Source: Rhodothermales bacterium
Lineage (GTDB): Bacteria > Bacteroidota > Rhodothermia > Rhodothermales > Bin80
NCBI GenBank assembly: GCA_965216255.1
Contig: OZ244148.1
Span: forward strand, 66,091 to 130,090
DNA length: 64,000 nucleotides
Direction: 5' to 3'
Positions 31,553-51,490 of the stretch are shown piece after piece; positions within the stretch are counted from its first letter, which is position 1, and every line of letters starts with the position of its first letter. A program made the translations under genes and the position numbers. The notes below the pieces were generated by a model. That model worked only from the letters and a program-made list of their open reading frames with translations, did no database searches and was not told where the DNA came from.

Positions 31553-31968
31553 GGTCGAATCCCCTTGATGATCTCGTAGAGCATGCCCTCGGTTTCCGTC
31601 TCCAATGCCAGGATATCGGCATGGGTCTCCTGCAACGAACGCAGCGGCTCTGGCCTGTAGAAAAAGCGCGTAAAGCTGATCTCGTAGCAGATCTTCACTG
31701 CGTTCGGCTGGTACCAAGAGTCGGGGCATACGGCAGCACCTCGCGTCGCAGGAAAGCTTCGAATCCGCCCCCCCTCCAGAAGCGGAATCTGCTCGGCGTC
31801 GCGCAAATTGGCGTGCGGTTCGTATTCGGTCACGGCAGGCCATCCGTCAATGGTGACCGCGAAAGGGCCGCTCAGCGGATCGGCTTCCGTGCCCGGCTTA
31901 TAGATCTTTCTGATGACTGGAGGCGCGTTCTCACTTCGCTTGCCGCTTCCCTTCGCCCTAAGTCTGCC
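31549..31968 (-). pseudogene. hsdM: C-terminal remnant of type I R-M modification subunit
   Basis: EYEPHANLRDAEQIPL..KICYEISFTRFFYRPEPLRSL..ILALE; fused to an IS66 tnpC stub. Confidence 0.75.
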
Positions 31969-32925
31969 GCGGAGGGCTTCAGCCAACTGTTTGTCCTTGC
32001 GCTCCAATTTCGCCTGCAGCCGGCTGTTCTCTTCGCTCAACTGATTGTTCTCCTCGGACAGGCTGACGTTCTGCTGAAGCACCGCGGCAAGCTGCGCACG
32101 GGAGGTCTCAACATCCGCAGAAGAGAGGTAGGAATGTGCTTCGGGCTGCATGATTGTTGAACAAGGCCTGCACATGCATTGTTCCCCGTTTCCACATACT
32201 ATTTATCCCGATTTTCAGCTCTTAACCGCATACCGGCGCCGGTATTTTACGGACTTCAGCGACACTCCCTCCAGTAACATCACCATCTGCGTCCACGTCG
32301 GCATGTCCTCTTTCGGCAGCTCAAACGTACCCGCTTCCAGCCTTTTGTAAAACAAGGCAAAGCCGTTTCGGTCCCACGAAAGCGCCTTCAGATGGCTCCG
32401 CCTCCTGTTGACGAACACAAAGATGTCCCCCGACATGGGATCCCGCTTCATGCCGCTTTTCACCAAGGCGCACAGGCCGTCAAAGCTCTTTCGCATGTCG
32501 GCCGGTAAAAGAAATACCGGCGCGAAGGCCCCAGTCCGATCATGACTGCACCAGCTGCGCCACGTACGAGGCAGATACCGGCGCCAAGAGGCGCACGCGT
32601 ATCCCGCCCGGGTACATGATCTCCACTTGCGCCTCTTCACCTGCCGTGGGTCTGCCAATCTCCACAAAGGCGCCGCTGTCCACTGCCACAGCCTCCAGGC
32701 GATACTTCCGACGCCAGTAAAGCAGCTGCCCATACGAGATGCCGCGCTCGGCACAGAACGCTGCAGCGGTCTGGCTGCTTTCTTCATACTGTTCCACCAG
32801 CGGAAACATTTCTTCCGCCGTTCGTCAGGGCTGTCTCATGCCATCCAGGCTTTGAGTCCTCGGGGCTATGAGTAATCTCCCGAGAAATCGTCACCTTCTC
32901 CAGATGGGTTTCACCGCACGCTTAC
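31969..32925 (-). mobile_element. Truncated IS66 copy (tnpA, tnpB with small deletion, tnpC 5' stub)
   Basis: Homology to the 9417-16927 element; left TIR at 32925. Confidence 0.88.
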
Positions 32926-36967: not shown

Positions 36968-38370
36968 GAGAAACTGTCATATCTTGGGTCTGCAGAATGC
37001 CGCGGCGTATCTTTGTGGAGTACCCATCAATCGCCCTAGACGGGCACATCCGGACTACATCGTATGACAGACTCAACAGAATCCAACGTACACTCACTGG
37101 TTACCCGTGAGGAGGCACTCAGCACCCTGGATGACCTGGTGCGCAGCTCCGCCCGGCGTATGCTGCAGGTAGCGCTCGAGCGGGAAGCCGACGACTACGT
37201 GAAGGCCCATGCACACCTGCGGAATGAGCACGGCCACCGAGTCGTCAAACGCAATGGTCACCATCCGCAGAGAGAAATCCTCACGGGTGCGGGCCCGCTA
37301 GCGATCCAGCGGCCCCATATCCGTGACCCTCGAGAAGGGCATACCTTCACCAGCGCCATACTGCCGCGCTATATGCGCCGCAGTCCGTCGATAGACGCAC
37401 TCATTCCGGCCTTGTACCTGCGGGGAGTTTCGACCAACGACTTTGCTCTGGCCCTGGAGGCCATACTCGGGCCACAAGCTGGCAACCTATCGCCATCGTC
37501 GATCAGCCGACTCAAGGGGGCTTGGCTGGAGGAATACCGGCAATGGAACAAGCGGGACCCCGCGGGCAAACGGTATGTTTACCTCTGGGCTGACGGGTTA
37601 TACTTCAATGTCCGCATGGGAAACGAGCGCCCGTGTATGCTTGTTATTATTGGAGTTACACCCGATGGAAGGAAAGAACTCGTAGGACTTCTGGACGGAG
37701 AGCGGGAAAGCAGGCTGTCCTGGAAGGAGCTATTGTTGGATATCAAACAACGAGGCTTGGACGTAGCGCCTAAGGCGGCCACAGCAGACGGAGGCCTAGG
37801 CTTCTGGGCTGCGTTGGAAGAAGTATATCCCTCCACGCTACAACAGCGATGCTGGGTGCACAAGACGGCCAACGTGCCGGGTAAGCTGCCCAAGAAGCTG
37901 CAGGGGGCTGCGAAAGAGAGGCTCCGTGGCATCTATACGGCACCGTCCAGGAAGGATGCCCTGAAAGCACTCGATACCTTCGAGAATCTCTTCGGAGGCG
38001 CCTACGAGAAGGCCGTCACCTGTCTGCGCAAGGATCAAGAGGAGCTCTTAACCTTCTACCAGTTCCCGCCCGAACACTGGGTTCACCTTCGGACTTCGAA
38101 TCCCATTGAGTCCACGTTTGCGACCGCAGGGAAACGTACACGGCAAACCAAGGGATGCGGCAGCCGGGACGCGACACTGATGATGGTTTACAAGCTAACC
38201 CGGGAAGCGCAGAAACGCTGGCGGAGGCTGACTGGATCGCAGCTGCTCATCCGTGTGCTGGAAACAACCCCACAAGAGTACAGCGTAGAAGTAGACAAAC
38301 AAGCCGCCTAATTCTAATTCCACAATCCCATGCCGCAGCATTCTACAGACCCAAGATATGACAGTTTCTC
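36968..38370 (+). mobile_element. IS256-family element copy 3 (1403 bp), no matching TSD
   Basis: TIR GAGAAACTGTCATATCTTGGGTCTG; lacks the 8-bp ATTCCACA duplication of copies 1 and 2. Confidence 0.93.
37064..38311 (+). CDS. IS256-family transposase
   Basis: About 9 amino acids differ from copy 1. Confidence 0.93.
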   Translation: MTDSTESNVHSLVTREEALSTLDDLVRSSARRMLQVALEREADDYVKAHAHLRNEHGHRVVKRNGHHPQREILTGAGPLAIQRPHIRDPREGHTFTSAILPRYMRRSPSIDALIPALYLRGVSTNDFALALEAILGPQAGNLSPSSISRLKGAWLEEYRQWNKRDPAGKRYVYLWADGLYFNVRMGNERPCMLVIIGVTPDGRKELVGLLDGERESRLSWKELLLDIKQRGLDVAPKAATADGGLGFWAALEEVYPSTLQQRCWVHKTANVPGKLPKKLQGAAKERLRGIYTAPSRKDALKALDTFENLFGGAYEKAVTCLRKDQEELLTFYQFPPEHWVHLRTSNPIESTFATAGKRTRQTKGCGSRDATLMMVYKLTREAQKRWRRLTGSQLLIRVLETTPQEYSVEVDKQAA

Positions 38371-38475
38371 GCCAATTGGCAAGATATAACCGATTGTGTC
38401 TTTAAGATTTGAAGTATTTTCGTACAAGCACTAGATATTGGGGAGTTGTACCCTTCGATTGTACAGAACCGCAAG

Positions 38476-39099
38476 TTACGAAATTCCACCCGTAGCCATT
38501 TGGTCGTAGGCATGTAGCACAAGCCGTTTGGTTCGATATTCACCAAATCGGTTGAGCTCGTCCTTCTTCAAGACATTGAAGGACACACTTGGCAGGCATG
38601 GATCCAGTATCCAGTCGAGCTCATCTCTTTCCAGACCATACATATGGGCATAGATAGCATCCAATTCGGATTTCAGTTTGTGGCGTCTACTATCAATCCA
38701 AGTAAACGGCTCCCCAAAGTAGCCGAGCCTTTGAGCAAGTCCAGCTAGTTCAGACGATGTATATATAAGCTCCAATACGAGTGGCGCGATTACTTCCGCA
38801 AACGTACGGTAACGGCTTGGGCAACTCTCCAGGTAGGCCTCGGGTCTGAGTACGGGAAGCTGCTTTACGATAAAGAAACTTACGTTTGTACCGCCCACCG
38901 AGCAGCGTGCTACCCAATCAAGCGGGACACTATTCAGATTCGCCATTACGAGTACAGAAGCAACTGCGCTAGGCTGGCAGTAACCAATTCCCGTCGCACT
39001 ATCGCTCAAGCCGCTCACGGGCACTGTTCCTGCTACAGTGGTTCTAGCATCCGTCGCCCTTGAGATTCGGCGCAGAGCATTAACCCACGCTTCCGACAT
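38476..39099 (-). CDS. Separately encoded C-terminal (target-recognition) part of the DrmMI-like methyltransferase
   Basis: WVNALRRISRATDART..ANLNSVPLDWVARCSVGGT..KQLPVL..ELDAIYAHMYGL..FGEYRTKRLVL, typical of the DrmMI C-terminus. AGGA lies upstream of the ATG. Confidence 0.75.
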   Translation of the reverse strand: MSEAWVNALRRISRATDARTTVAGTVPVSGLSDSATGIGYCQPSAVASVLVMANLNSVPLDWVARCSVGGTNVSFFIVKQLPVLRPEAYLESCPSRYRTFAEVIAPLVLELIYTSSELAGLAQRLGYFGEPFTWIDSRRHKLKSELDAIYAHMYGLERDELDWILDPCLPSVSFNVLKKDELNRFGEYRTKRLVLHAYDQMATGGIS

Positions 39100-39198
39100 T
39101 TATCCTAAGTATTGGAGCTTTGTTATTGATGGCAGCCAGTGGGACTGCGGCAACGATTACGGTGCGCCTATCGGTTGGTCTTGCAATGTCTCGGAATA

Positions 39199-42100
39199 CT
39201 ATGAACCAAGAGCTACAATGGTCCCGGAATGGCTCAAGCCTACCAACGGAATCGCGGTGCAAATGATCGTTCGATGATCGGTAGCGCGAGTTATGTTTCT
39301 AATCGCAAGTGCCGTCCCAATTCTGCGATGGATGCATGGAACAATTCGTGTAAGTGCGGTATAACCATTTGCTCTGCTTTGCTCTGCTTTGCTCTGCTTT
39401 GCTCTGCTTTGCTCTGCTTTGCTCTGCTTTGCTCTGCTTTGCTCTGCTTTGCTGCCTATTTTGTCGGCTATAGCCTGTTCGGGGACCCAATATCTCGGAA
39501 GCACTACTTGATTGGGATCGCGTTTTTCCACTGCCGCCAACTCTTGTGCATTCATATTCTTAGGATTACTTTCGCTCGCGCCCTCGTACGTCGCAAAACG
39601 GTGATCGTACTGATGAAATAGCTTAGCTTCGTATAGTGGCAGGTAGCGCTCGTCTCCGAAAACGAACGCGTTGCCTTTGAGCTCCCAGCCGTCGTCTTCA
39701 AGTTGGACGCGAGTTCGGAATACGCCTGAATCATTGGCCATGTCAAACATTCTAGAGAATCTCACGCCCCACGGATTCTCGTCCGACTCCTTCCCCCGCC
39801 CCTCTCGCCAAAGCACTCCAGCCCGTTGGTACATCTTGCGGACAATCTCCATATCTCGGCGCGTCCGAAAAATTGGACAGGTCAGGGTATTGGGGTTGAA
39901 GAGCCGAAAGTCAGCTTCCGACATATGAAAGCTGCGCTCCCTGTCACGGAGATGCTCAGTTCTATGGAGGTAGAAGGCGAACTCGGGGGCCTCACACGGA
40001 TGTTTGATCCCTGTCAATGTCATAAGTGAGAATTTCATGCGACTGTCTACGGCGGGAAACAATTTTTGCCGATTCTCAAAATCATAGAAGCTGACGAGGC
40101 GCTTGTTCGTTACGATATCAGCAAAGAAATCTTTTGTTGTGTCATCTGTGGCGATGCCACTAGGGACGAGCATGCCAGCGCGCCCGCGTTCATTAAGCAG
40201 TTGGAGAAAGGTTTCAGCAAACAACGCATAGGTATTGATGTCGCCTTTGCCCGTAAGAGGAAACCTGCCCCCACACCGAACGAATTGACTTGTTTTCTCG
40301 GCGCGGCTCTTGGCCATCTCGTAGGCGACAAGAAGCTGCCTATCGGCCGGTGATGCGGCAGGAGCGCCTAGCTTTTTTATGAGTTCAGCGCGCGCCGCCT
40401 TGTTTGGCGCGTTGGCAATCTCCTCAGACCTGGACGCGAAGAACTCCTTCTCCTGCAGTTTTATCTTCTCCCACGGGGGATTTCCCAACACGACGTCGAA
40501 GCCTCCGCCATACATAATGTCTGCGAACGCCGTATTCCAATGAAAAAACCGGTTTTCTTTTGCCAGCACGGTGACATTGGTGCTTACTGCGCTCTCAATT
40601 AACTGGTCGCTCTCCACACCAGACCCTGGACGAGCTATTCGAAGCAGATGTGCCGTAGTCGGCACACTAAGACTTGAATCTTGTGCCTTCTTAGCAAAGA
40701 AAGCGCCCACAAACAAATTGCCCCGAAGATTTGCCACCTGCCTTTCCGGGTTTCGCCGCGCGCGCATGTCGGCTTCCTCCTTCCGTCGCACATCATCGAG
40801 GCTTTGATCTCCCATCTGGTTCACGCCAGCCGATTCATGCGCAACGAACGCCCCTTGGTTTTCGAAACCAAGCTCCAGTTGATTCGTGTTAGCTACCTTC
40901 TTGTTTCGTTTCTTGAGATCCGCGCAGACGCTCTTGGCGTCTCCGGTCTTGGGATCGTATGCCTTTGAGGGAATTCCTCTCTTCGTGATGGTTTCATCGA
41001 CAAGACCTAGGAGGCTGTCACCGCACTTAACGTGGTGATCCAGGTAGGACAGCGGCTTGCCGGGCTCCAGGGCCTCCATCCACAGGGCGGTCTTGCAAAG
41101 CTCCACGGCGAGCGGGTTACGATCTATTCCGTAGATGCATTTGCCAAGAACGTCTCTCAGCGTGCGCTGCAGATACGATTCGCTCACATCATCGGGTGAC
41201 GCAACACGAACCACCTCCGCAGCAATGCGACGGGCAGCGGCAAGAAGAAAATGGCCTGAGCCGCAGGCAGGATCCACGACCTTAAGCTTCAGAAGAGCCC
41301 TTCTCGGATCAGCCGGATTGTTCCGAATAGTGTCTTCGAGCACCGGAACAAGTGCGGATTTTATGATCTCATCTACCAGTGTAGGCGGCGTGTAATAGGA
41401 ACCACTGAGCTTCCGAGCCGAACCCTTCACTTTGGCGCCGTCACCGATGAAGCCGAAAGACCACGGCATAGTTTCCGTTTTCAGCCAGGGCTGCAATTCC
41501 AGCAGGCTTTCGTAAACGGAACCGAGTTCCTCCGTGCCCATGTCACGGTAATTTATTCTGGTCAGCCCAGTATTTGAGTCAAAAAAACTGAGTGCCCTTA
41601 TGGTCGACAGAAGCCAGGAGTTACGGATATGAGCGGTATCCAGGGCCGGGCACTGCTTTTTTGCAAAGAGTCCTCCGAGCCCAGATATCCCCAACGCTGG
41701 CTGCCCGACACGCAAGGCCTTAAACGCAACCAGGACACCTAGCCAGAGGTCATGCTGTTGATCGTAATGTCTATTCCGTCGAGACCGTTCAACTAGGCGA
41801 GCAATCGAGTAGCCTTCCTGATACATTTGACTCTCGGCTGTCAAGGTATTCGGATCATGCAGCAGACTCCGAGCTTCGGCTGCAAGCAGAAACAGGAAGC
41901 GGTAGACGAGTCGCAGCAACTGCTCATAGTAATTGTAGGTCGTGAGCCTCCCATCCCTAAGCATCTCGCGCAGGTCTATATTCGCCGGGTGCTCCAGGAA
42001 TCCATTTCCAAGCTGACGCAAGGCCTCTGTCACACCCAAGCGCAGCTTGCCCCGCACCCTTTCGCCCGTTTCGTGAGCCTTTTCTCGCCACATCTCGAAC

Positions 42101-42777
42101 CTGCAACTAGACGGACGGTCCGTCTTCGGACTAAGGCGACTGGCATGGACGGTGAGCCAGAGCATTCTGAACTCCGGATAGCGTTCCTCCTCGAAAATTG
42201 TCTCCAGATCCGCTTCCAGAAAGGACGGACGAGTAAGGCTCGGGTTGTCGCGCAGTAGGCGAAGAGCCTTCCCGTTGGATGCCATTCCCCACAGACACGC
42301 GTCCTCTGCATTCAGGAATTCTTGCGTTACGCCGTGAGGAGAATCTCGTCTTCCATCCGTTCCAAACAGCTGGTTCGCCTTATCCAACCTGAATTCCATC
42401 GGTGCAAGCACAATAGGCACAGAGCCGCCACATGCGCGGTGTGTAAGTTTGAACTCGCGCTCTCCCACGGTAGCAGGTGCGCACTTCTTCAGGTCCTGAT
42501 ACCCAAGCACATCCCGGAGAAGGGGCTCGAGCCATTCATCAACCACCACGTGCTCGGAAATCCCATGCCTGACTCTCAAGGAATCGTACAAATCACAGGC
42601 AATGCGCCAGTACCGCCCGATCTCTTCCTTCAGCATGAGCGATTTCGAGAGACCGTAATCCGCGCTGGACTGCTCCGGTGCTTTTAGTGCATTCACGTCC
42701 TCCAGGAATTCGGACGGCAGGATGCCACCTTCGACCCGTACGGCACTGTACCCCGAATGACTACTCCGATACTGCAT
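39199..42777 (-). CDS. DISARM DrmMI-like N6-adenine methyltransferase (Eco57I/type IIG-like)
   Basis: EELGSVYESLL, GSYYTP, DPACGSGHFL, GNPPW, FENRQKLF, LPLYEAK, PRYWV. Confidence 0.88.
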   Translation of the reverse strand: MQYRSSHSGYSAVRVEGGILPSEFLEDVNALKAPEQSSADYGLSKSLMLKEEIGRYWRIACDLYDSLRVRHGISEHVVVDEWLEPLLRDVLGYQDLKKCAPATVGEREFKLTHRACGGSVPIVLAPMEFRLDKANQLFGTDGRRDSPHGVTQEFLNAEDACLWGMASNGKALRLLRDNPSLTRPSFLEADLETIFEEERYPEFRMLWLTVHASRLSPKTDRPSSCRFEMWREKAHETGERVRGKLRLGVTEALRQLGNGFLEHPANIDLREMLRDGRLTTYNYYEQLLRLVYRFLFLLAAEARSLLHDPNTLTAESQMYQEGYSIARLVERSRRNRHYDQQHDLWLGVLVAFKALRVGQPALGISGLGGLFAKKQCPALDTAHIRNSWLLSTIRALSFFDSNTGLTRINYRDMGTEELGSVYESLLELQPWLKTETMPWSFGFIGDGAKVKGSARKLSGSYYTPPTLVDEIIKSALVPVLEDTIRNNPADPRRALLKLKVVDPACGSGHFLLAAARRIAAEVVRVASPDDVSESYLQRTLRDVLGKCIYGIDRNPLAVELCKTALWMEALEPGKPLSYLDHHVKCGDSLLGLVDETITKRGIPSKAYDPKTGDAKSVCADLKKRNKKVANTNQLELGFENQGAFVAHESAGVNQMGDQSLDDVRRKEEADMRARRNPERQVANLRGNLFVGAFFAKKAQDSSLSVPTTAHLLRIARPGSGVESDQLIESAVSTNVTVLAKENRFFHWNTAFADIMYGGGFDVVLGNPPWEKIKLQEKEFFASRSEEIANAPNKAARAELIKKLGAPAASPADRQLLVAYEMAKSRAEKTSQFVRCGGRFPLTGKGDINTYALFAETFLQLLNERGRAGMLVPSGIATDDTTKDFFADIVTNKRLVSFYDFENRQKLFPAVDSRMKFSLMTLTGIKHPCEAPEFAFYLHRTEHLRDRERSFHMSEADFRLFNPNTLTCPIFRTRRDMEIVRKMYQRAGVLWREGRGKESDENPWGVRFSRMFDMANDSGVFRTRVQLEDDGWELKGNAFVFGDERYLPLYEAKLFHQYDHRFATYEGASESNPKNMNAQELAAVEKRDPNQVVLPRYWVPEQAIADKIGSKAEQSRAKQSKAEQSRAKQSKAEQSRANGYTALTRIVPCIHRRIGTALAIRNITRATDHRTIICTAIPLVGLSHSGTIVALGS
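39371..39450. repeat. Simple sequence repeat (GCTCTGCTTT)x8 inside the MTase ORF
   Basis: Eight exact 10-bp units, read as AEQSRAKQSK on the minus strand. Confidence 0.97.
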
Positions 42778-42780
42778 CCC

Positions 42781-45627
42781 TTACTCTATTGACGGCACGA
42801 CCACAAGGATACCAATCAGGTCAACCGATTGCGCTGGCTCCACATCGTACTTAACTCCCTGGGCTCGACCGGCATCCCGAATACGTCTATGATCCTCCAG
42901 TAATTCAGTGGCCCTTGCTTTGGCAATACTACGAAACTCATCTTTCAGCATGTCGAATCGCCGAAGCGCCTTCCTTAGCTCGTAGCTTTGCTGCGCTTTC
43001 GCCATATTGCGGGTGGGTACGTGGGCGAGCATTTTCTGGGCCTGGTCTTCGCTCATGAGCTTTGGCAGAGCATTTCCCATAACTCCGGTCGCAACACATT
43101 CCTCCACCACATGCGTTCGGTCCGCACCGAATCTGCCATCCTCGTTGCGGCGAGAGCGAGTAAGTAAATGCCGCAGCCGCAGCAAGTACACCGTCGTTCG
43201 TGTAATAACCCCAGCAGTGAACATTGCGCTCGCCCGCGCTCCTATTCCTTCACTTGCGGAATCCAGCATCTTTTCAGCGACATAATCAGCCATTGCGGTA
43301 ACCAGCGGATGGGTCCGATGGATAAACACTTCACCGGGCCTCAACTCAGATCTAGAGAATGAAAGCGGCGTCAATTCAGTCAACCCTGAAGAAGCCAGAG
43401 CATCTCGTAGCACGCTGGGCAAGTGCTCGATCGACAGCCGAAAACTACCGCCCTTCTTATCCATTGGTGCACCCAATTGAATGGTCGCACGCCGAACAAA
43501 CTGTTCAACATTACGCTCTCCACCCAATACGGAAATAGTCTTTTTCCATTCAGGTAGGACATCGGTCGGCTTGAGCTTTCTTTGGGCAAAGACGGTACGC
43601 GTCATTTTTTCACCAGCCGTTCTCCACGCACTGTCAACCGGGTCCCCTGCATAACCCAGGTTCAGCACGGCTTGGCGACCGTCTGATCGAAGCAACACGG
43701 ATGCCATTATCGCTTCAATGACGTCTCTACTTTCTCCAGGCAATGGCACTGCTACGCCAAGTGCCTTACGAATCCGTTCCGCTTTGCGAACAATTACTTG
43801 GAGCACCGCACCGTCGACAGGATTGTTCCTGCCATAGAGCATAACCGTGCGAACGGTTCTAGACCTCTGACCGAACCGATCCGCTCGTCCTTCACGCTGT
43901 TCATGCCGCGTGGGATTCCACGACAAGTCGTAATGAACCACGGAATTAAAAAAATCCTGGAGATTGATCCCTTCCGAAAGGCAATCCGTGGCAACGAGAA
44001 CCGGTACTTTGCCGTTTGCAAGCTCTACGCCGAGGTCGTGCACGGATTCCTCCCTCCTAGCGGACGTCTGCTCACCCGTAACCACAGCAACAGCCACTAC
44101 GTTTCTCTGGAGATGCACTCTGAGCGCTTCCCCGACATAATGAGCGGTAGCAATGTAGCGGCAGAAAACGACCGGACGAAAACTCTCGGAGACCAATTCC
44201 TTTATGCTCTTAATGAGCGCTTTCAGCTTCGGGTCACTGGTCGGTCCACGAAGCACCTCGGCCCGCTGCTGCAACGATCGCAATGCTTCCATATCGTGCA
44301 GCCCGATCCCGCCTCCCGGCTCCCGTTCGCTTTGTGATAACAGATCTTCGCCTACGTCGTCGGTCACCATTCCCCGGATCGCATCTTCAAGTTTGTTGGC
44401 GTTGAATTCACCGTTTTCACAAGCCGTAGATTTGATGCGCGTGCTTAGTGCAATTACTGCCGCGGCAGGACTGGAGGAGATGCACCTCAGTAACGCAAGC
44501 GCAGCCCACCAAGACATGCGCTGTTCCCTTTTGGTGCCACCACTGGCCCGATCTACTAGCGCCCGCGCATAGCGCAGTACATGATTGAAGAGTTCCATCC
44601 ATGCTCCCGTCCACTCGAACGTCGTCTCACGGCTTTCACGAACAGGGAATATAGTTTCGTCTTGCCATTCGGCAATGTCGCCTCTTCGCCGCTGCACTAA
44701 ATGCATTCTCAACTGCTCTTGGATATACCTTCTTTGCGATTCATTCTCTGTACGTCCAATTTCGCCGAATTCCGGCCTCAATAACCCTAGTAGATTGTAA
44801 AATGCAGTGTCATTGCCCGAATGCGGTGTAGCAGTAAGAAACAGCATTCCCCGAGAACGCGCAGCCTCCGCTAGGCCCTTCACCAACTGATAACGCTGGT
44901 GCCTCGTTCTCGAATTGAAGCGCACGCATGTGTGCGCCTCATCAACGATCACGAATTCCGGGCAGACCCGTAGGAATTCATCACGCCGTCGATCCTGCTT
45001 GATATAGTCCAGAGAGACCACCGTAAATGGATAGGCCTCAAAAATGGATTCGCCCGGCCTAAGCCCACGTTCTAGACGTGAGGCCGTGGTAGTTCGAATA
45101 ACTTCACTTCGAATATTGAACTTTTGAGCCATCTCATGCTGCCACTGATCGCAAAGGTGGGGCGGGCAAATTACACTCAAACGTACGATTTCGCCGCGAT
45201 CTATAAGCTCGCGCGCAATCAGTCCAGCCTCGATGGTCTTGCCAACGCCAACATCATCCGCAATAAGCAACCGTACCGGCTCAAGCTTGAGCGCCATGAG
45301 GAGTGGCACCAGCTGATACGCTCGAGGCTCAAAATTCAGGCTGCCGAAACTCCTAAAGGGGCCCGCACCTGAGCGCAACTTCAGCCGTAGCGCATCCCAC
45401 GTTAACAGGAGCTCATCTTTCGTGCCTAGCTGCTCCGGATCTGGCAGGTCGAATTGCGCAGGCTTTGGCTTCTCGGGCTCAATGGGCAGATATACGACCG
45501 TAGCGTCTTCATCCCTCCCTGCCAGCGGCCTGAGTCTAAGTACACCTTTGCGGTGCTCCGGAAGGACAATCCATTCGCGGCCTCGCAGCGTGACCAAATC
45601 ACCGGGCCTGTAGTCGACCTGCATCAC
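42781..45627 (-). CDS. DrmD-like SNF2 helicase
   Basis: EPRAYQL, ADDVGVGKT, DEAH, TATPH, SEGINLQ, WNPTRHEQREGR. Confidence 0.9.
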   Translation of the reverse strand: MMQVDYRPGDLVTLRGREWIVLPEHRKGVLRLRPLAGRDEDATVVYLPIEPEKPKPAQFDLPDPEQLGTKDELLLTWDALRLKLRSGAGPFRSFGSLNFEPRAYQLVPLLMALKLEPVRLLIADDVGVGKTIEAGLIARELIDRGEIVRLSVICPPHLCDQWQHEMAQKFNIRSEVIRTTTASRLERGLRPGESIFEAYPFTVVSLDYIKQDRRRDEFLRVCPEFVIVDEAHTCVRFNSRTRHQRYQLVKGLAEAARSRGMLFLTATPHSGNDTAFYNLLGLLRPEFGEIGRTENESQRRYIQEQLRMHLVQRRRGDIAEWQDETIFPVRESRETTFEWTGAWMELFNHVLRYARALVDRASGGTKREQRMSWWAALALLRCISSSPAAAVIALSTRIKSTACENGEFNANKLEDAIRGMVTDDVGEDLLSQSEREPGGGIGLHDMEALRSLQQRAEVLRGPTSDPKLKALIKSIKELVSESFRPVVFCRYIATAHYVGEALRVHLQRNVVAVAVVTGEQTSARREESVHDLGVELANGKVPVLVATDCLSEGINLQDFFNSVVHYDLSWNPTRHEQREGRADRFGQRSRTVRTVMLYGRNNPVDGAVLQVIVRKAERIRKALGVAVPLPGESRDVIEAIMASVLLRSDGRQAVLNLGYAGDPVDSAWRTAGEKMTRTVFAQRKLKPTDVLPEWKKTISVLGGERNVEQFVRRATIQLGAPMDKKGGSFRLSIEHLPSVLRDALASSGLTELTPLSFSRSELRPGEVFIHRTHPLVTAMADYVAEKMLDSASEGIGARASAMFTAGVITRTTVYLLRLRHLLTRSRRNEDGRFGADRTHVVEECVATGVMGNALPKLMSEDQAQKMLAHVPTRNMAKAQQSYELRKALRRFDMLKDEFRSIAKARATELLEDHRRIRDAGRAQGVKYDVEPAQSVDLIGILVVVPSIE

Positions 45628-48600
45628 TCTTTGGTCCGCCTACTGGTCGCACCGAAAACCCAAGGATATGCGCGAATTACGTCCAACCATCTCGCTCTGT
45701 TCAGGGAAAATCGAATCACTACAAACCCCGCGGACTCCAATTCTGCCGTAAGCCTGGCATCTACGGTATGCTGTTCCCGCGTTAAGTGGTGTGGCCCGTC
45801 AATATAAATCAGTGCCTGAGCTTCCTCATAGTAAAAGTCTGCCCGTGTCCGGGGAAGATTCACTAAATGTTGAGCTGAACTCGGCAGGCGGAGATGGTTC
45901 TCCAACATGAACTGCAGCCAGTCCTTCTCCAAGCTGGAGCCTGAGGCATTTAACAGCTCCTCCATGCTGTCCCGCGCTGGGGAGGTATTCCGCAGTCGCC
46001 TCGATCCGACGAGCCGACAAAGCAAGTCCATTGCGGCATCATCTTTTCGATCGATGGCGCCGTGATCAAGTTGGTTGTAGTAGCTGAGGAGGCATCGATA
46101 GCAGCCAGCTTCACAGTCCGCATTGATATCTTCCAGATCCGCCGCACTTATCGACGGTGCCGACTCAAGACGATAGTGACAGACTTGCAGGGCTCTTTGG
46201 GCCACGGCCTGAATACTACCATGCTCATGCACAAGGTGGGACAGCACGCCCGCACCGCCCTCAGACGACTCGAAAAGCAAGATTGCATTCCGAAGATCCC
46301 GATTCGGCAGAGGCTCCACCGCGAGCTCATTCTCTTCCAACTGGTAGAGCTGCTCGATGCCTCTCTTGAGTGCGTATTGCACTGTCACCAAGGATAAATC
46401 ATCGCAGTCAGACAGGGGCCGGACAATAAGCACGTTCCGTGTATCACGAACGAACGGTGTAATGCGTTGGAGCGGTGTGGATTCACCAGAGAATTCTTCA
46501 TCAGGGTCATCTGGATTCTCCGTGCCCTTCGCCCACCTGCCATTCCTGGCGTCAATATGGAAACCATGTATAGACTTCACCTTGCGGCGGCGCCATCCCA
46601 GATTAATCCGCCAAAGCGTTGCAGCTGGAGCATAACTCAGTTCCAGAAGATCCCCTTTGTCATCTCCGAGCACTGCGGTCTCAACCCGTTGTCGCCCATC
46701 GGATTGAGAGAATCTAACCGTCGTGACGATATCGTACCCCAACCGGCGTCGCTCCTCTTCATCCGACGTTATACGCGTAATCCTGCGAGTGGACACTTGT
46801 TCTATACAGTACAAGCGCTCAACCAAGAGTCCGTCGCCAAGGAGTGCATCGCAATGTACGCAACGCTCGAAATCCTGCTGGTCCACAAAGTGTCCATACC
46901 CACACGAGAGACAAATGCGCGCTCGAGTAACCGGTAGCGTGTGGAAAGGCACGTTGGACGCATCCTGACGGCGACTGAGAATGGCTCGCTCGACTCGGTA
47001 TGTGCTGCCTTCGTGATAAATGATGGACCCGGGGCCGAATTCGGAGAGACCAAGAAACCGCGGACGGCTGAGAAAAGACTCTTTCACAGATTTCTCCAAC
47101 CGCCCGGGGATATACGCCAGTAGCGGCAGCCGTGGGAAATTGTAGCCCGGTAGGAAGCCCTCTGAAGCAAGGTACCGGTAAGAATAAAAGTCGGAGCTTA
47201 CGGTAGCTCGTGAGTACAGCAGCAAATTCTGCTGTCTTTGCGCCTCGTCGAATCGAGTCTTTGCTTCCTTTCGCTCACGCTCGCTAGCAGCAAAGTTGTC
47301 GAGAATTTCGAGTGCCAGTTTCTTCTGGCTAACCGTGGCCCGGAAAAGAGTCCTCCAGCGGTCGAAGGCCTCATCCAGCCGCCGCTGCGCGCGTCTGACT
47401 TGATTATCCACCCAAGTATCGGCATACCAAGAGGCCATCCCTTCACCGAATTCCGGCACAATCGTTTCCATGATCCGCCGTACCCTAAGTATTGCACGCT
47501 CAGCGGCTTGCGGTCTACGAAGTTGATCGTCTATTTCAGATGTTATTGGCAGTTCATCGGCCTGTGAGACATCTAGCACTTCGGCAACCGAATGGCTTAG
47601 CATTACGCCAGTTTCCGAGAGCCATACGGCCTGAATGTGGCTTCGGACAAGATCCTCGTTGGTAACATCGATCGCTGGGGGCGATACAATGCCGGCTACA
47701 ACGCGGGCGGGATTCGAAAAAAAATATTGGTCGTGCGGAGATCGGGCCGCGCAGTACGTGACAACCAACGCGGGCTGCCCGCTTCGCCCGGCACGACCGC
47801 TGCGCTGGGCATAGTTGGCCGGTGTTGGGGGTACATTACGCATGTATACGGCATTGAGCGACGCAATATCCACGCCCAACTCCATGGTCGGAGTACAGAA
47901 CATAATTGGCAGCCCTTCTTCGCTATTTTTCCTTGCCAGCCCGCTGCGAAATCGCCTTTCTCTTTCCTGGCGCACATCACTATCCACTTGAGCTGTGTGC
48001 TCTCGGGCCTCTAGCTGATGCAGCAAACGCTCCTCTTGGTCAAGTAATTTGGCGACATTGCGGTAGAGCTCGCAAAAGAAGGTATTTATGGGGCCCTTTT
48101 GCGTCCGGCCATCTTCTTCGGTACCCAAGCGCCATTCCAGTACTGACGCGTTGACATAGTATCCTGTGCGCCCACATTTCAAGTCCGTAGGTTCGATGAT
48201 CCCATAATCGCGCAGAACACGTAGTAAATCGTCCACGACGGTGTTGTAGAACGATTCGTCCCGCTTTGTGGGCAAGTACGGATTATCGTCGCCCCACGTG
48301 CTCGTGCGACGTACCATGGCGCCAAATGTGGATCTATACGAAACATGATGCCGTCTTTCTCGATCCGCTTCCTCCTGGTAGCGAGGGCGTGGTACCATGA
48401 CGGAAAACGACGTGACTTGGTCGTCTTCGGCCAAGGCCCACGGTTCTTTCAGCAGCGTATAGCTCCTACGCTTCAATTTCTCCAATTCCTGATAGTCGAG
48501 AAATGACGACTTGATGCACAATTCCTTCAGCATCCGATCCAGCAACTCGCGCGCAATGGCCATTCTGCCGTCTGGAGAAAGTGCACGAAAGACTGGATGG

Positions 48601-50828
48601 GTATCTGCCCAAGCTGCAACATCGCCGCAGCATGCTTCTAGGTCGGCATAGGTTATGTGGAGCAGGTTAAGCTGCTCCAAATTGGGATTGTTGACCCGCC
48701 AGCCCCGCCTTAAGTCGACATATAGGCGGTGACCAATGATTCCAGTCAACGTGTCCTGAGCCTTACGTGCTGCCCTCCCCCCTGCCCTAGGACTTACGGA
48801 GTAGTCCGCAGGGTCAAGCCGCAACTGGGCTGTAACACACTGGGCCACCACATCATCTGTGAGGTATCCAGCCGGCGCGTGCTGTATTGCGGACAGCAGA
48901 GCACCTCGCAGCAGAAGAATTTGGACGAAATCGTTGAAGTGTCCCGCCTGAAAGCTTGCATCCTGTCTGTTGTCCGTAAACCCCAATAGTTTTTTCGCAC
49001 TGGGGTCCAGATCGGACCCAATGAGATACTTTAGCGCTGACAGCACAAGAACGGTCGTCGCAGACGAGCGCCCCTCCCCAGAGAGTCCGGAAAGTTTTGC
49101 AATGTCGCTGCGCTTACGCGGCGAATGTTGCGTAAGACACTTCAAACAAAAGCGAAAGGACCGTGGCACGTACCACGCATCCATACCACTCGGCACCACT
49201 TTGCCTGAGCTATCCACAGCCAGCCGGATAGGAGCATACTTCCGATAGTGTGACTTGATGCGCACCAGACCACGTTTGGACTCTAGCCACTCCTCCGGGC
49301 ACATGTCCTCTAGCGAGCCCTCCGCACTATCCCCAGGCATGAGATACCCAATCTGCTCATCTTCGTCGTCAGTGGATCGCTCGAATAGATCTCTTCGACT
49401 GAACTCGATCGGCTTTCCAGCCCCCAGCGTTGTCCATACAGGAAAATATTCTTGTCCACATTCACGACAGAAACTAAGACAGAACAGGGGGCTTGTGCGA
49501 TCTCCGGGTTTGAATTGCTGACCCTCGAGCGTTATATAACGCCCGCCTGGCGGGTCCAAACTAGCATAGACATTCCAGGCACCGCTGATGAATTGGTGCA
49601 GTCGGAAGGCAAAGAGACTCCTGCCCGCTTGGTCGCGACACTGATAAGCAGCCAGCAGAAACCCCACTAGATAATCCCGACAAACATCTACGTCGAGCTT
49701 GGTATCCTGCGCAAGCCGCACTACAGCCTGCATTACAGTCAGCGGATTCCTTGTGCGAACCTTCTTCCCATCTAGATCCTCCAGCCCTAGTCTTAATTCC
49801 ACCCAAATAGCAACTGGATGCCTCGATGGCGCAGTGTACGTATATCCCAATGAATGTCCTTGCAAAACCGACTGGCGCAATTTTGCCTTATCAACGTCTC
49901 CAACGGTTACTCTATCCAAGGACTCAGTAACCACGCTCGCCAGCGTGACCCGGGCGCCAAACACGGTAGAGGCCACGTCAGCTACGGCACCGTTACCGTC
50001 GCCGTCCGAAGTTTCGGAAGCCATTGTCGCAGAAGTGCCGATGCATAATAAGCCGGCGTTAAAACGCTCCCGGACTCTCCGCACTAGCATTGCTATATCC
50101 GCACCCTGCCGTCCACGATAGGAATGCAGCTCATCAAGCACGAGAAAGCGCAAGCCCTGTGCATGGCTGCGAACAGCCTTGTCCGTTTCGATAAATCGCG
50201 TCATGATCAACTCAAGCATGACGTAGTTGGTCAGCAAAATATCGGGCGGATTCTTGGCAATTCTTGCCCGATCTTCTTCCGACTCCTGCCCGGTGTAACG
50301 AGCGAATGTCACGGGAGCCTTGCCGCTGGGGTAGCCTCGGCGTAGATACTTCTCAAGTTCTTCTGTCTGGCTGTTGCATAGGGCATTCATCGGATAAACC
50401 ACAATGGCCGCAATGCCTTTGCTTCCCCTACGTAGCACGCTGTCAACAATAGGAATAAAGTATCCGAGCGATTTTCCAGACCCGGTTCCCGTAATTATCA
50501 CAAAACTCTCGCCGCGTTGCGCAATCTCGATGGCATCGGCTTGGTGCTGGTAAAGCGTTAGAGCCTCTCCTATCGGATCCTTTTGAGTCTTGAGTCTGAA
50601 AATATTCTTGCACTCTGGGTGAAGCTTGCCATTGGAAACCATCTGATCTATGCTGGGACCTGCCCTAAAATTCGGATTCAGTTGAACGATGGGATCCGGC
50701 CAATACCGCCCGGCAGAATAGGCAGCATCGACCTTAGCCTTTATGTCGCTGGCATTGATTTTAGTGAAGCTTCTTGAGAAGGCTCCATACTCCTTCACTA
50801 GGGTATCACGAAACTCAAATACGTTCAT
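45624..50828 (-). CDS. DEAD/DEAH helicase with DUF1998 and C-terminal DUF559/Vsr-like nuclease (DrmAB-like fusion)
   Basis: TGTGSGKS, DELH, SAT, TMELGVD, QRSGRAGR, CEAGCYRCLLSYYNQ, ADFYY..IDGPHH. Confidence 0.88.
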   Translation of the reverse strand: MNVFEFRDTLVKEYGAFSRSFTKINASDIKAKVDAAYSAGRYWPDPIVQLNPNFRAGPSIDQMVSNGKLHPECKNIFRLKTQKDPIGEALTLYQHQADAIEIAQRGESFVIITGTGSGKSLGYFIPIVDSVLRRGSKGIAAIVVYPMNALCNSQTEELEKYLRRGYPSGKAPVTFARYTGQESEEDRARIAKNPPDILLTNYVMLELIMTRFIETDKAVRSHAQGLRFLVLDELHSYRGRQGADIAMLVRRVRERFNAGLLCIGTSATMASETSDGDGNGAVADVASTVFGARVTLASVVTESLDRVTVGDVDKAKLRQSVLQGHSLGYTYTAPSRHPVAIWVELRLGLEDLDGKKVRTRNPLTVMQAVVRLAQDTKLDVDVCRDYLVGFLLAAYQCRDQAGRSLFAFRLHQFISGAWNVYASLDPPGGRYITLEGQQFKPGDRTSPLFCLSFCRECGQEYFPVWTTLGAGKPIEFSRRDLFERSTDDEDEQIGYLMPGDSAEGSLEDMCPEEWLESKRGLVRIKSHYRKYAPIRLAVDSSGKVVPSGMDAWYVPRSFRFCLKCLTQHSPRKRSDIAKLSGLSGEGRSSATTVLVLSALKYLIGSDLDPSAKKLLGFTDNRQDASFQAGHFNDFVQILLLRGALLSAIQHAPAGYLTDDVVAQCVTAQLRLDPADYSVSPRAGGRAARKAQDTLTGIIGHRLYVDLRRGWRVNNPNLEQLNLLHITYADLEACCGDVAAWADTHPVFRALSPDGRMAIARELLDRMLKELCIKSSFLDYQELEKLKRRSYTLLKEPWALAEDDQVTSFSVMVPRPRYQEEADRERRHHVSYRSTFGAMVRRTSTWGDDNPYLPTKRDESFYNTVVDDLLRVLRDYGIIEPTDLKCGRTGYYVNASVLEWRLGTEEDGRTQKGPINTFFCELYRNVAKLLDQEERLLHQLEAREHTAQVDSDVRQERERRFRSGLARKNSEEGLPIMFCTPTMELGVDIASLNAVYMRNVPPTPANYAQRSGRAGRSGQPALVVTYCAARSPHDQYFFSNPARVVAGIVSPPAIDVTNEDLVRSHIQAVWLSETGVMLSHSVAEVLDVSQADELPITSEIDDQLRRPQAAERAILRVRRIMETIVPEFGEGMASWYADTWVDNQVRRAQRRLDEAFDRWRTLFRATVSQKKLALEILDNFAASERERKEAKTRFDEAQRQQNLLLYSRATVSSDFYSYRYLASEGFLPGYNFPRLPLLAYIPGRLEKSVKESFLSRPRFLGLSEFGPGSIIYHEGSTYRVERAILSRRQDASNVPFHTLPVTRARICLSCGYGHFVDQQDFERCVHCDALLGDGLLVERLYCIEQVSTRRITRITSDEEERRRLGYDIVTTVRFSQSDGRQRVETAVLGDDKGDLLELSYAPAATLWRINLGWRRRKVKSIHGFHIDARNGRWAKGTENPDDPDEEFSGESTPLQRITPFVRDTRNVLIVRPLSDCDDLSLVTVQYALKRGIEQLYQLEENELAVEPLPNRDLRNAILLFESSEGGAGVLSHLVHEHGSIQAVAQRALQVCHYRLESAPSISAADLEDINADCEAGCYRCLLSYYNQLDHGAIDRKDDAAMDLLCRLVGSRRLRNTSPARDSMEELLNASGSSLEKDWLQFMLENHLRLPSSAQHLVNLPRTRADFYYEEAQALIYIDGPHHLTREQHTVDARLTAELESAGFVVIRFSLNRARWLDVIRAYPWVFGATSRRTKE

Positions 50829-51490
50829 ATCCGTGCTAAGGGGAGTTGAGGGCGGCTTGCAGGGTTTAGCTGCCAGCTATCGGAAGGCGTTACGTGCCAA
50901 GTAAAATGAGACAAGGTCGCCGCGGATTTAGTTAGTGATTGCCCGAAAACGATTTGAGTGATCTGTAGGCCACAAGTCTGGATAAATTTCCCCGGAGGAA
51001 GACCTGTTCAATTAACGCAATTTCAGGCACTTCAACATGTCCCGCCATCACCCACAACCCTCGCTGTTCTCTATCTTAAATTAGGTGAAATTCTGTCCAA
51101 CGATTGGGGGACACCCCACAACGCCCCAGGAAATACAGAGCGAAAGCTCCCGATGGCTCTCACATCTAGTTGGTATGCACCGTAACTTCGTCCTGGGACT
51201 GACCAACGAAGTGGGACCACATCATCCGCCGTACTAAAGCCTCTGGAGTCGCCCTGCCTTGGCACACCTCCTTCGTTGGGCCCTATAGTAAGGTGTCCGT
51301 GAATGAGCAGCAACTCCAGAACGTCATGGGTAGTTTACATTCAGTGTGCCAGAATCAAGACTAATTAGGAGATTTTACCATCCGGTGCCCATCGCGGAAT
51401 TCAGTGGCCTTTCCGTCCGGGGTCGCTGATGCGGCCCTTTCGGCAAGACTCCATGCCGACATCGAGCTGCGAGAAACCGAAGGGAGGATC

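Follow-up and report, generated by a model that had tools for sequence, protein, structure and literature searches.

The locus described here is probably a partly decayed member of a family of large defence methyltransferase genes in which a simple sequence repeat drives a three-way choice of C-terminus. It lies in a 64,000-nt stretch of contig OZ244148.1 from a Rhodothermales bacterium (the window). In the mechanism we propose, a hypermutable repeat with a non-triplet unit would sit in a surface helix or loop of a TaqI-like recognition domain, and the next element of that domain, a unit of about 38 aa with four beta-strands, would have been multiplied into different reading frames behind the repeat. 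Slipped-strand mispairing at the repeat would change the frame and thereby pick the C-terminus: frame X would give a short enzyme whose end is copy 1; frame Y would read copy 1 out of frame and give a long enzyme with copies 2 and 3 and a helical C-terminal module of about 170 aa; and frame Z would give a truncated product that lacks the element. There would also be a second layout, with a separate copy closing each of the three frames. In the window, a TAG and a one-base insertion would have closed frame Y, leaving the repeat, now of 8.6 units, in frame X. The comparisons below establish how the arrangement is built and that it recurs, that both overlapping frames are under selection, and that every state occurs as a natural allele. 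We infer that methylation or defence activity differs from state to state, as a matter of specificity or as a series of full, altered and off forms, and a change of specificity between states is plausible.

The gene is best explained as the N6-adenine methyltransferase of a three-gene DISARM-like defence operon, the other two members being a DEAD/DUF1998/nuclease protein and an SNF2 helicase. Its product, P0001, matches Pfam Eco57I (3.2e-21), N6_Mtase and MmeI_Mtase as well as the PADLOC DrmMI model (1.6e-70, over a span limited to residues 451-773), and none of the NCBIfam families reached its own cut-off with it. The sequence contains the motifs DPACGSGHF and NPPW (as GNPPW), and these SAM/NPPW motifs, together with a fold match spanning the catalytic and recognition domains, identify P0001 as a TaqI-like (gamma-class) N6-adenine methyltransferase. 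In 146 of 160 loci, the methyltransferase has a homologue of the SNF2 helicase upstream; the window's helicase matches the PADLOC models DpdE (4e-191) and DrmD (2e-85), and its 328 bits against NCBIfam DISARM_DrmD are under the cut-off of 610. For the 1734-aa protein at the head of the operon, the best PADLOC model was DruE (1.4e-89), with weak matches to DrmA (1e-11). No PLD domain (DrmC) was found in the three operon proteins or the scanned neighbours; the helicase protein ends in DUF559 instead. A tblastn search with P0001 and P0002 over the genome found this locus and no paralogue, which rules out a genomic paralogue as cassette donor. The end of an IS256-type element lies about 40 nt behind the methyltransferase gene, contig depth shows multi-copy IS ends at 38400-38437, and the island is rich in IS copies.

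The 10-bp repeat that the preliminary description placed after PRYWV was recovered by TRF as a single array at 39368-39453 (period 10, 8.6 copies, 100% matches, score 172), which starts 45 nt (15 codons) past the first base of the PRYWV codons and has the unit GCAGAGCAAA on the gene strand. It has two marks of a phase-variable locus, being a perfect intragenic repeat with a unit that is not a multiple of three and one in which a one-unit change alters the product. The 5.41-Mb genome holds five perfect repeats of at least 30 bp and at least four copies, and this array is the only one with a non-triplet unit. Its peptide is modelled as a helix extension (H371-404 in the short-isoform C-half model), and 55, 24 or 22 codons are left after it depending on the frame, with stops at 39199, 39291 and 39299, respectively. 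The k-mer contigs of four runs from one study end at 39397 and resume at 39418/39424, none bridging the repeat. Short-read contigs from two samples of one study show 0 differences over 38400-39397; the frame relations in the window are thus not assembly errors.

Table 1. Features of the methyltransferase locus and its operon, in window positions.
Feature	Position	Strand	Description
P0002, small ORF	38476..39099	-	207 aa; copy 3 plus C-terminal module (ANLNSVPLDW ... FGEYRT)
Copy 3 (WVNALRRISRATDART...)	38968..39087	-	Start of small ORF, after ATG 39097-39099; HMM score 19.0
Copy 2 (WFIVFRDIARPTDRRT...)	39083..39208	-	Frame Y (-1), overlaps copy 1 stop; HMM score 44.4
Junction AGGATAAATG	39097..39106	-	Longer by one base than the 120-nt spacing in relatives (insertion located to this junction, not to a single base); copy 3 pushed out of frame Y
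Copy 1 (TALAIRNITRATDHRT...)	39202..39315	-	Four-strand element of about 38 aa in the methyltransferase frame (frame X); short-isoform C-terminus; HMM score 37.6
Third-frame stop	39291..39293	-	Frame Z, null state; three-frame translation
TAG in long-isoform frame	39299..39301	-	Frame Y; arises from copy-1 codons ATT AGA
Simple sequence repeat, (GCAGAGCAAA) x 8.6	39368..39453	-	Frame-shifting; TRF; KAEQSRAKQS... in current frame
P0001, large ORF	39199..42777	-	1192 aa; DrmMI-like / Eco57I-family N6-adenine DNA methyltransferase, short isoform ending in copy 1
SNF2-family helicase	42781..45627	-	948 aa; DrmD/DpdE-like; directly upstream of the methyltransferase; Pfam, PADLOC
DEAD/Helicase_C + MZB (DUF1998-type) + DUF559 protein	45624..50828	-	1734 aa; first gene of the operon; Pfam

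The earlier observations on the region behind the repeat stood in full. A profile HMM of the element recovered the three diverged copies of about 38 aa in different frames, their starts 107 and 121 nt apart, and three-frame translation agreed that copy 1 is in frame up to a stop at 39199-39201, that copy 2 lies in the -1 frame over this stop, and that copy 3 has its own ATG at 39099 and is continuous with the conserved C-terminus in a 207-aa ORF. Likewise, gaining or losing a repeat unit does end translation at 39299 or 39291, as these two non-methyltransferase frames stop 22 and 24 codons past the repeat, ahead of any complete copy. Copy 2 is shut in by stops on both sides (39299-39301 and 39080-39082). 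The codons from which the upstream TAG is formed keep copy 1 conservative (L to I), and the junction before copy 3 contains the ATG of the small ORF with an AGGA 3 nt upstream. Because the TAG and the one extra base break the long frame, the repeat toggles only the short enzyme here; no repeat length in the window yields a product with copy 2 or copy 3, and the outcomes are only the 1192-aa short form and two truncated forms. The window's gene is probably a derived, partly decayed member of the family in which a complete copy remains in frame X alone.

The suggestion that copy 2 is a reserve reached by recombination or frameshifting did not hold. In 14 relatives, copy 2 shares a frame with copy 3 at a spacing of 120 or 123 nt, and both belong to one long isoform. 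The window's copy 2 is therefore not a reserve cassette but a part of that isoform cut off by mutations. Compared with other loci, it has a mean identity of 0.47 to copy 2, against 0.30 to copy 1 and 0.35 to copy 3. The three window copies all agree at only 32 of 115 aligned DNA positions, making recombination between them unlikely, and copies from the same locus are no more alike than copies from different loci; on these two grounds, recent gene conversion among the three copies was ruled out.

Repeat and multi-copy array recur together in homologues, an outcome on which the preliminary description had made its reading depend. A non-triplet repeat between PRYWV and the first copy was present in 0 of 109 single-copy loci, and a repeat of this kind at the same site in 19 of the 22 loci with more than one HMM match; the exceptions (L054, L133 and L154) were judged spurious, the second match being weak (10-26 bits) and at least 600 nt away. 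With the window's own taxonomic family included, all 26 unique multi-copy loci (27 rows, L173 being the same as L021) carry the repeat, with units of 1, 4, 5, 7, 8 or 10 nt; long tracts among them include C x 29 and 5 nt x 38. The copies start 107 and 120 nt apart in 11 loci, 113 and 113 nt apart in four and 107 and 121 nt apart in the window. All five loci of the second layout end each of the three frames in its own copy. The long frame is reachable in 22 of the 26 loci, the window being joined by L010, L033 and L177 in having it broken. As assembled, five of the 26 stand in the long, 11 in the short and 10 in the null state, these being consensus sequences of different organisms, not populations. 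A scan of metagenome contigs gave 80 loci, among which L087 alone belongs to the multi-copy branch. Genome titles place the switchable methyltransferase in Rhodothermales, Arenicellales, Alphaproteobacteria, Bryobacterales, Acidimicrobiia, Dehalococcoidia, Verrucomicrobiae and Longimicrobiales. The C-terminal module is missing from the ends of 85 of the 119 database homologues, a warning for annotation, since these are called truncated although they are switch states.

Over copy 1 in 11 loci, frame X has an identity of 0.43, a BLOSUM score of 1.95, no stops and site entropies of 1.03, 0.64 and 1.37 at the three codon positions, and frame Y has an identity of 0.24, a BLOSUM score of 0.50 and no stops in 374 codons (34 x 11); frame Z over the same stretch has 29 stops. 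These patterns show that copy 1 evolves as protein in frame X and that the overlapping frame Y stays free of stops. The copy classes also hold across phyla, with identities of 0.42-0.52 within classes as against 0.30-0.36 between them.

Natural alleles show the switch in different positions. The proteins P0045, P0288 and P0289 share 100% identity across the 1087 aa that precede PRYWV, and their genes differ in repeat count, giving short, long and null ends; P0116, P0298 and P0299 (99.7-100% identical) likewise have different repeat counts and ends. Repeat number, whose variation the preliminary description had proposed to look for, thus varies between near-identical genes of the family, and the C-terminus changes with it. 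The family has the features of C-terminal phase variation, with frames X and Y open, X conserved and, in the second layout, copies in three frames. Because the arrangement recurs, maps to the recognition domain and has alleles that change the C-terminus, the family's repeat exceeds an ON/OFF switch. The earlier idea of more than ON/OFF therefore stands for the family, with its alternative C-termini, and is not supported for the window, where the short enzyme alone is toggled.

In the model of the long-isoform C-half (pLDDT 86.4), copy 3 and the C-terminal module are confident, and the linker and copy 2 are below pLDDT 50, leaving copy 2 without a confident placement; the window's copy 3 corresponds to the confidently folded copy (strands 470-505). 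In the model of the short form's C-half (pLDDT 89.3), residues 426-461 form the four strands of copy 1, with strand-block pLDDT values of 70, 69, 90 and 93. A PDB sequence search with a long homologue gave 0 matches at E <= 0.01, and a fold search was used instead. In the VIA alignments, the long form matched M.BseCI (Z 15.3, rmsd 3.7, 364 aligned), CamA (Z 14.9) and M.TaqI (Z 13.8, rmsd 4.1, 316 aligned, model 3-555 to TaqI 73-410), the short form matched M.TaqI (Z 13.1, rmsd 4.2, 265 aligned, model 9-463 to TaqI 73-362), and PglX/BrxX appeared as a structural relative (Z 12.2-12.5). Judged from the two TaqI alignments, copy 1 would therefore occupy the position within the recognition domain that is taken by copy 3 in the long form. 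The models thus place the element inside a TaqI/CamA-like DNA-recognition domain, in agreement with the original view of the segments as parts of such a domain.

P0002 shares 49-59% identity with stand-alone modules and with the C-terminal ends of long homologues, and ORFs of 223-256 codons made of a copy and the C-terminal module, with possible starts, stand alone behind L177, L179, L180 and L182. The genomes of 40 relatives held no close orthologue, the best being 58% identical to P0002. A promoter and terminator scan of 38300-39500 found one promoter-like site (1.4 expected), not upstream of P0002, and no terminators, and supports neither presence nor absence of separate P0002 expression. 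As for the proposal that the small ORF is a partner of the large subunit, modelling of P0001(730-1192) with P0002 predicts docking, with an ipSAE of 0.90 compared with 0.00 for the best control; among solved complexes, 58 of 80 attained this mark, and among mismatched pairs, 2 of 110 did. At least 79% of contacts were common to the runs, the partner's pLDDT was at least 86, and the predicted dock site is residues 936-1164 of P0001. Since P0001 and P0002 are the halves of a split gene, this result may simply reflect the domain packing of fused relatives. The C-terminal module persists in this 207-aa ORF, whose translation and assembly in trans may or may not take place.

The first reading of the locus was that repeat length chooses between copy 1 of the large subunit and copy 3 of the small one, shifting the motif, with copy 2 as a silent reserve. 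It draws on P0002 being intact, conserved and predicted to dock, on the stand-alone module ORFs behind four other loci and on the position of the element within the recognition domain. We nevertheless consider it rather unlikely: the other repeat states end the large subunit just past the repeat and lose copy 1, the stump so formed would have to be stable and to accept P0002, the ribosome-binding context of the small ORF is weak, copy 2 has its orthologue in the in-frame copy 2 of the relatives' long isoform and was cut off by mutations, and the low number of shared DNA positions makes recombination unlikely. Less easily set aside, though also on the unlikely side, is plain decay, in which a once switchable gene would have become a pseudogene remnant with a leftover repeat and neither the 1192-aa nor the 207-aa product would work. 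The whole locus could indeed be heading for loss, as the long frame is dead, an IS256-type element adjoins it and the island is IS-rich; the two lesions in the long frame, the likewise broken frames of L010, L033 and L177, the flanking IS elements and the HMM score of copy 3, the lowest of its class, all fit this. However, the 1192-codon and 207-codon frames remain open, both upstream helicase genes are intact, the TAG stems from codons that preserve copy 1, and the repeat is perfect where an unselected one would be expected to gain interruptions.

A simple ON/OFF switch, in which only the long isoform would work and copies 1 and 2 would be inert remains of a tandem duplication, would agree with the rule described for repeat switching in Type III mod, Type I and Type IIG genes and pglX (PMC4365076, PMC4889913) and with the lack of a confident placement for copy 2. 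We find it improbable, as copy 1 has protein-coding substitutions in its own frame, class signatures are kept across phyla, and many homologues end without the C-terminal module; moreover, the second layout has a copy in all three frames and so has no OFF state. It is also conceivable that RNA polymerase or ribosome slippage on the repeat makes a mixture of isoforms in each cell, with the DNA state being minor, as the long homopolymer and short-unit tracts of the family are of the slippage-prone kind and frameshift suppression at a mod repeat is described in a report (10.64898/2026.04.01.715767). Near-identical genes, however, carry DNA alleles that differ in repeat number and frame. The window's 10-nt unit would also be a poor substrate for transcriptional slippage, and we regard this explanation as very improbable.

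To our knowledge, almost all described phase-variable methyltransferases come from host-adapted pathogens, and almost all act as ON/OFF systems; the repeat-switch principle is now seen in a large defence methyltransferase across several bacterial groups. The layout, with the element once per reading frame and the frames overlapping, was clearly built by selection. If the three-way switch is true, these frames would represent rare selected triple coding in bacteria, and if its states differ in specificity, it would be a compact, recombinase-free way to diversify defence and self-marking. Only tentatively do we suggest that the switch is heritable and changes either recognition or the partner module (fused, trans-acting stand-alone or none), with a lineage cycling through different specificities of defence and methylation and thus going beyond on and off.

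DISARM class 1 consists of DrmD, DrmMI, DrmA, DrmB and DrmC, of which DrmC is dispensable in the systems studied. Like it, the window's operon holds an SNF2 helicase, a large Eco57I-type N6-adenine methyltransferase and a DUF1998/MZB helicase. Unlike it, the window fuses the helicase and DUF1998 parts in a 1734-aa protein ending in DUF559, has no PLD protein in the operon, has an SNF2 protein below the curated NCBIfam DrmD cut-off, and is assigned DruE and DpdE models above DrmA and DrmD by PADLOC.

Among phase-variable methyltransferases, repeats are described in Type III mod and Type I hsdM/hsdS (PMC5909438, PMC7383803), in the Type IIG enzyme Cj0031 (PMC4889913) and, as a G tract, in pglX of the Pgl/BREX-2 system (PMC4365076). 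As in the present family, an intragenic repeat shifts the frame of a methyltransferase serving restriction or defence. In contrast to this family, these switches are described as ON/OFF, and they are not reported to include duplicated recognition-domain elements in alternative frames; here, the repeat lies inside the recognition domain, about 300 codons before the end of the long form. The literature searched contained no description of such duplicated elements and no paper joining DrmMI/DISARM with simple sequence repeats, although the supplementary tables of PMC5909438 and PMC7383803 might list related genes. The NgoAV system is close to the family in that a repeat frameshift truncates the specificity-determining part. 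In work attributed to Adamczyk-Poplawska et al. in 2011, a poly-G frameshift in NgoAV hsdS reportedly truncates the specificity part and gives a shorter product with another specificity. NgoAV drops its whole second TRD, whereas here the truncated form has a dedicated copy of a sub-domain element; a change of specificity is reported for NgoAV and would be plausible for this family.

The closest parallel is C-terminal phase variation, which Snyder et al. are said to have described in Helicobacter canadensis in 2010. In Neisseria gonorrhoeae, a repeat towards the 3' end is described as switching the C-terminus among three frames, and in some of these genes, one frame fuses to a downstream coding sequence (PMC5320596). 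The family shares with these cases a repeat towards the 3' end that switches the C-terminus between frames. In the known cases, single genes switch between tails that are unrelated to one another; here, in contrast, the switch acts on a defence methyltransferase, its tails are paralogues derived from one recognition-domain element and coded in overlapping frames (dual or triple coding), and the design is common to genomes of many phyla.

The site lies at the 3' end of a minus-strand operon of three genes, in which a large helicase and a SNF2 helicase precede the methyltransferase P0001, whose top PADLOC match is DrmMI (1.6e-70). The small ORF that follows, P0002, consists of the third copy described below plus a C-terminal module and matched no family model in Pfam, PADLOC or NCBIfam. 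With a SNF2 gene upstream of the methyltransferase in 146 of 160 homologous loci, this pairing is a trait of the family. The operon resembles class 1 DISARM yet is not a clean member, given that its SNF2 protein scores 328 bits against a curated DrmD cut-off of 610, that its helicase and DUF1998 parts are fused, and that no PLD gene was found in the operon or its scanned neighbours. The surroundings form a defence island rich in IS copies, and the IS genes near the locus comprise two of IS256 type (Transposase_mut), three of DDE_Tnp_1 and one that is IS66 Orf2-like. Contig depth is 150-377 at 38400-38437, compared with about 8 over the gene, and loose ends are numerous at 38433-38437, which indicates the end of a multi-copy IS about 40 nt past the stop of the small ORF.

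Features of the window at and around the methyltransferase locus
Feature	Position (nt)	Strand
DEAD / Helicase_C / MZB (DUF1998-type) / DUF559 protein, 1734 aa	45624-50828	-
SNF2 helicase, 948 aa	42781-45627	-
Methyltransferase P0001, 1192 aa (Pfam Eco57I, N6_Mtase, MmeI_Mtase)	39199-42777	-
Small ORF P0002, 207 aa, after P0001	38476-39099	-
IS256-type transposase gene, just past P0002	37064-38311	+
Remaining IS genes	22746-23993, 34039-35901, 24231-26081, 19475-21460, 32215-32787	- (all)
GmrSD-type (Type IV, modification-dependent) restriction enzyme, 799 aa, with an extra DUF5655 domain	29444-31843	-
Possible second defence module: 582-aa Eco57I-type methyltransferase with M_Eco57I_C domain; 835-aa protein bearing two domains of HATPase_c type; two ORFs of 386 and 252 aa with no match in Pfam	51404-57386	+
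Subtilase, 1167 aa, with DUF4397 and Por_Secre_tail (type IX secretion sorting) domains	58430-61933	-

TRF detected a single array, at 39368-39453 (period 10, 8.6 copies, 100% matches). Scanning the whole 5.41-Mb genome showed five perfect tandem repeats with four or more copies and a length of 30 bp or more, among which this array is the sole one with a non-triplet unit. Behind it lie three diverged copies of an element of about 38 aa and four strands. Three-frame translation placed copy 1 in the frame of the methyltransferase with a stop at 39199-39201, copy 2 one frame off and overlapping that stop, and copy 3 behind an ATG at 39097-39099 and running on into the conserved C-terminus. The profile of the element put the copy starts 107 and 121 nt apart, and the other two post-repeat frames stop at 39299-39301 and 39291-39293. 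The repeat, copies, spacings and stops reported in the preliminary description were thus all borne out. Short-read contigs from two samples cover 38400-39397 with zero differences, so the frame relations are real, and the copies are old, since all three share only 32 of 115 aligned bases.

We searched with the C-terminal third of P0001 and obtained 6662 relatives at E <= 1e-3 among 8000 scored. Among the best 119 relatives with the PRYWV motif, 85 end without the C-terminal module and 58 carry a short peptide repeat about 20 residues past the motif. These peptide repeats, including AEQSR, AEPSR, TGQDR and DPTRP, are translated 5-nt units, e.g., GCAGA, GCCGA and ACAGG. We then applied an HMM of the element to all three frames of 160 homologous loci, to which further loci from genomes in the window's own taxonomic family were added. 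Exactly one copy, in the methyltransferase frame, is present in 111 of 137 anchorable loci; a single in-frame copy is the ancestral state, which agrees with the earlier expectation of one segment as the normal condition. A non-triplet repeat between PRYWV and the first copy occurs in 0 of 109 single-copy loci and in 19 of the 22 loci that gave two or more HMM matches; the three repeat-less loci were rejected as true multi-copy loci because their second match is weak and distant and was judged spurious. With the extra loci of the window's family included, such a repeat is found in all 26 unique multi-copy loci (27 rows, one a duplicate), as against none of the 109, and repeat plus multi-copy arrays therefore recur among homologues. 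Some loci carry two handles, L009 being the same as L168 (genome G006) and L021 the same as L173 (genome G012). The repeats are homopolymers of 9-29 or have units of 4, 5, 7, 8 or 10 nt, and the unit sequence varies by locus while the position is constant. The tetranucleotide array of locus L014 has an internal run translating as X/N (masked or unresolved bases), so its repeat count is uncertain. At least one C-terminal module was found in 15 of 24 genomes of the window's family, some with 4-6 matches.

Two layouts of the copies were apparent. In the alpha layout, the spacing between copy starts is exactly 107/120 nt in 11 loci and 110/120, 107/123 or 113/120 nt in a few more. Here, frame X reads copy 1 and then stops, giving the short isoform; frame Y crosses the copy-1 DNA out of frame, reads copies 2 and 3 in frame and ends with a C-terminal module of about 170 aa, giving long proteins of about 1400-1450 aa; and frame Z, the null frame, meets a stop within the copy-1 DNA. 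In the beta layout, seen at spacings of 113/113 nt in loci L011, L017, L066 and L170 and at the close value of 113/110 in L178, every frame carries a copy of its own (5/5 loci), two frames yielding short products and one a long product. Three loci have two copies, with 107 nt between them.

Over the copy-1 stretch of the 11 gap-free alpha loci, frame X has a pair identity of 0.43, a BLOSUM62 score of 1.95 and no stop, and its site entropy by codon position (1.03 / 0.64 / 1.37) bears the usual mark of a translated frame. Frame Y over the same stretch has weak protein conservation (0.24; 0.50) and 0 stops in 374 codons, and frame Z is interrupted by 29 stops. In copies 2 and 3, it is frame Y that bears the translated-frame signature. 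Copies of the same class are 0.42-0.52 alike across loci, as against 0.30-0.36 for different classes within one locus. Taken together, these frame signatures and the class-wise likeness argue that selection keeps both the copy-1 short product and the long product.

The frame now joined to the methyltransferase in the 26 loci is long in 5, short in 11 and null in 10. Switching was also looked at in protein clusters at 90% identity. All 1087 residues preceding PRYWV are shared without a difference by the homologous proteins P0045 (1206 aa), P0288 (1420 aa) and P0289 (1200 aa), which differ in repeat number and have short, long and null ends, respectively. Likewise, P0116, P0298 and P0299 (99.7-100% identical) comprise two long alleles three units apart and one short allele. 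Such near-identical genes with differing repeat numbers show that switching occurs in nature and that the repeat selects among alternative C-termini in the family, in line with the earlier proposal of more than an ON/OFF switch. The states may differ in specificity, or just as full, altered and off forms of the enzyme.

When the C-terminal 677 residues of the long relative L008 were modelled with AlphaFold (pLDDT 86.4), copy 3 folded as four strands, followed by helices at high confidence, and the linker and copy 2 (residues 374-465) scored below 50. Its best structural matches span the catalytic half and the recognition domain, and include M.BseCI (Z 15.3, rmsd 3.7, 364 aligned), CamA (Z 14.9), M.TaqI (Z 13.8, rmsd 4.1, 316 aligned, model 3-555 on TaqI 73-410), BrxX/PglX (Z 12.2-12.5) and MmeI (Z 10.0). 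For the window's short isoform, a model of residues 730-1192 (pLDDT 89.3) has copy 1 forming the same four strands at 426-461 (block pLDDT 70-93), and the alignment to M.TaqI reaches the last residue (model 9-463 on TaqI 73-362, Z 13.1), as does that to CamA (15-463 on 149-482, Z 13.7). The long and short alignments place the element within the recognition domain, where the preliminary description had put it, and the short-form model and alignments indicate that copy 1 stands in for copy 3 there. Missing from the modelled short form are a counterpart of the last part of the recognition domain and the additional module of helices. The model renders the repeat peptide as a lengthened helix, in which length changes would be tolerated.

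In the window itself, copies 1 and 2 are 107 nt apart, the distance seen in relatives, and copies 2 and 3 are separated by 121 nt as against 120. The extra base, near 39097-39106, shifts both copy 3 and the module away from frame Y and gives ...AGGATAAATG..., the start of P0002. Additionally, the frame-Y stop at 39299-39301 is a TAG formed by the copy-1 codons ATT AGA, so with both lesions no repeat length gives a protein with copy 2 or 3. As such, the window copy is a broken alpha layout whose repeat would now toggle just between the 1192-aa short form and two stumps. The suggestion that copy 2 is a reserve and copy 3 an alternative supplied by the small subunit does not fit, as the long frame is lost here. 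Of the 26 loci, 22 can still reach the long frame, and L009, L015 and L036 are examples in which it is intact. It is closed in L010 by an insertion and in L033 by a stop within copy 2, and is likewise out of reach in L177 and in the window; the long isoform may have been lost repeatedly. The L010 insertion adds about 410 bases between copies 2 and 3 (nt 6589-7121), and the L033 stop is at the beginning of copy 2 (nt 6437).

Whether P0002 is in use is evenly balanced. In favour, P0002 is intact and shares 49-59% identity with stand-alone modules and with the C-termini of long relatives, and downstream of other family members there are stand-alone "copy + module" ORFs that span 223-256 codons and have candidate starts. 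The predicted complex of P0001(730-1192) with P0002 also scored ipSAE 0.90, 0.90 and 0.88 (best of three controls, 0.00), with at least 79% of contacts shared between runs and a partner pLDDT of at least 86; 58 of 80 solved complexes attain the ipSAE mark used, as do 2 of 110 mismatched pairs, but because P0001 and P0002 are halves of a split gene, the score may reflect no more than the way the domains pack in fused relatives. Against use, the ribosome-binding context of P0002 is weak, and a promoter scan found no promoter-like site upstream. Stand-alone modules lie behind a complete methyltransferase gene at L177 (genome G001) and L179 (G013), about 11 kb downstream of one at L180 (G009), and at a contig start at L182 (G012), and some of these are in tandem after a first fused or degenerate module. 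Such ORFs could serve as specificity subunits acting in trans or as spare cassettes.

The arrangement was not described in the literature searched. It works like C-terminal phase variation (PMC5320596), the repeat-controlled methyltransferases of Pgl/BREX-2 (PMC4365076) and those of Type I, III and IIG systems. Unlike in these systems, the alternative tails here are paralogous copies of one recognition-domain element and are written in overlapping frames.
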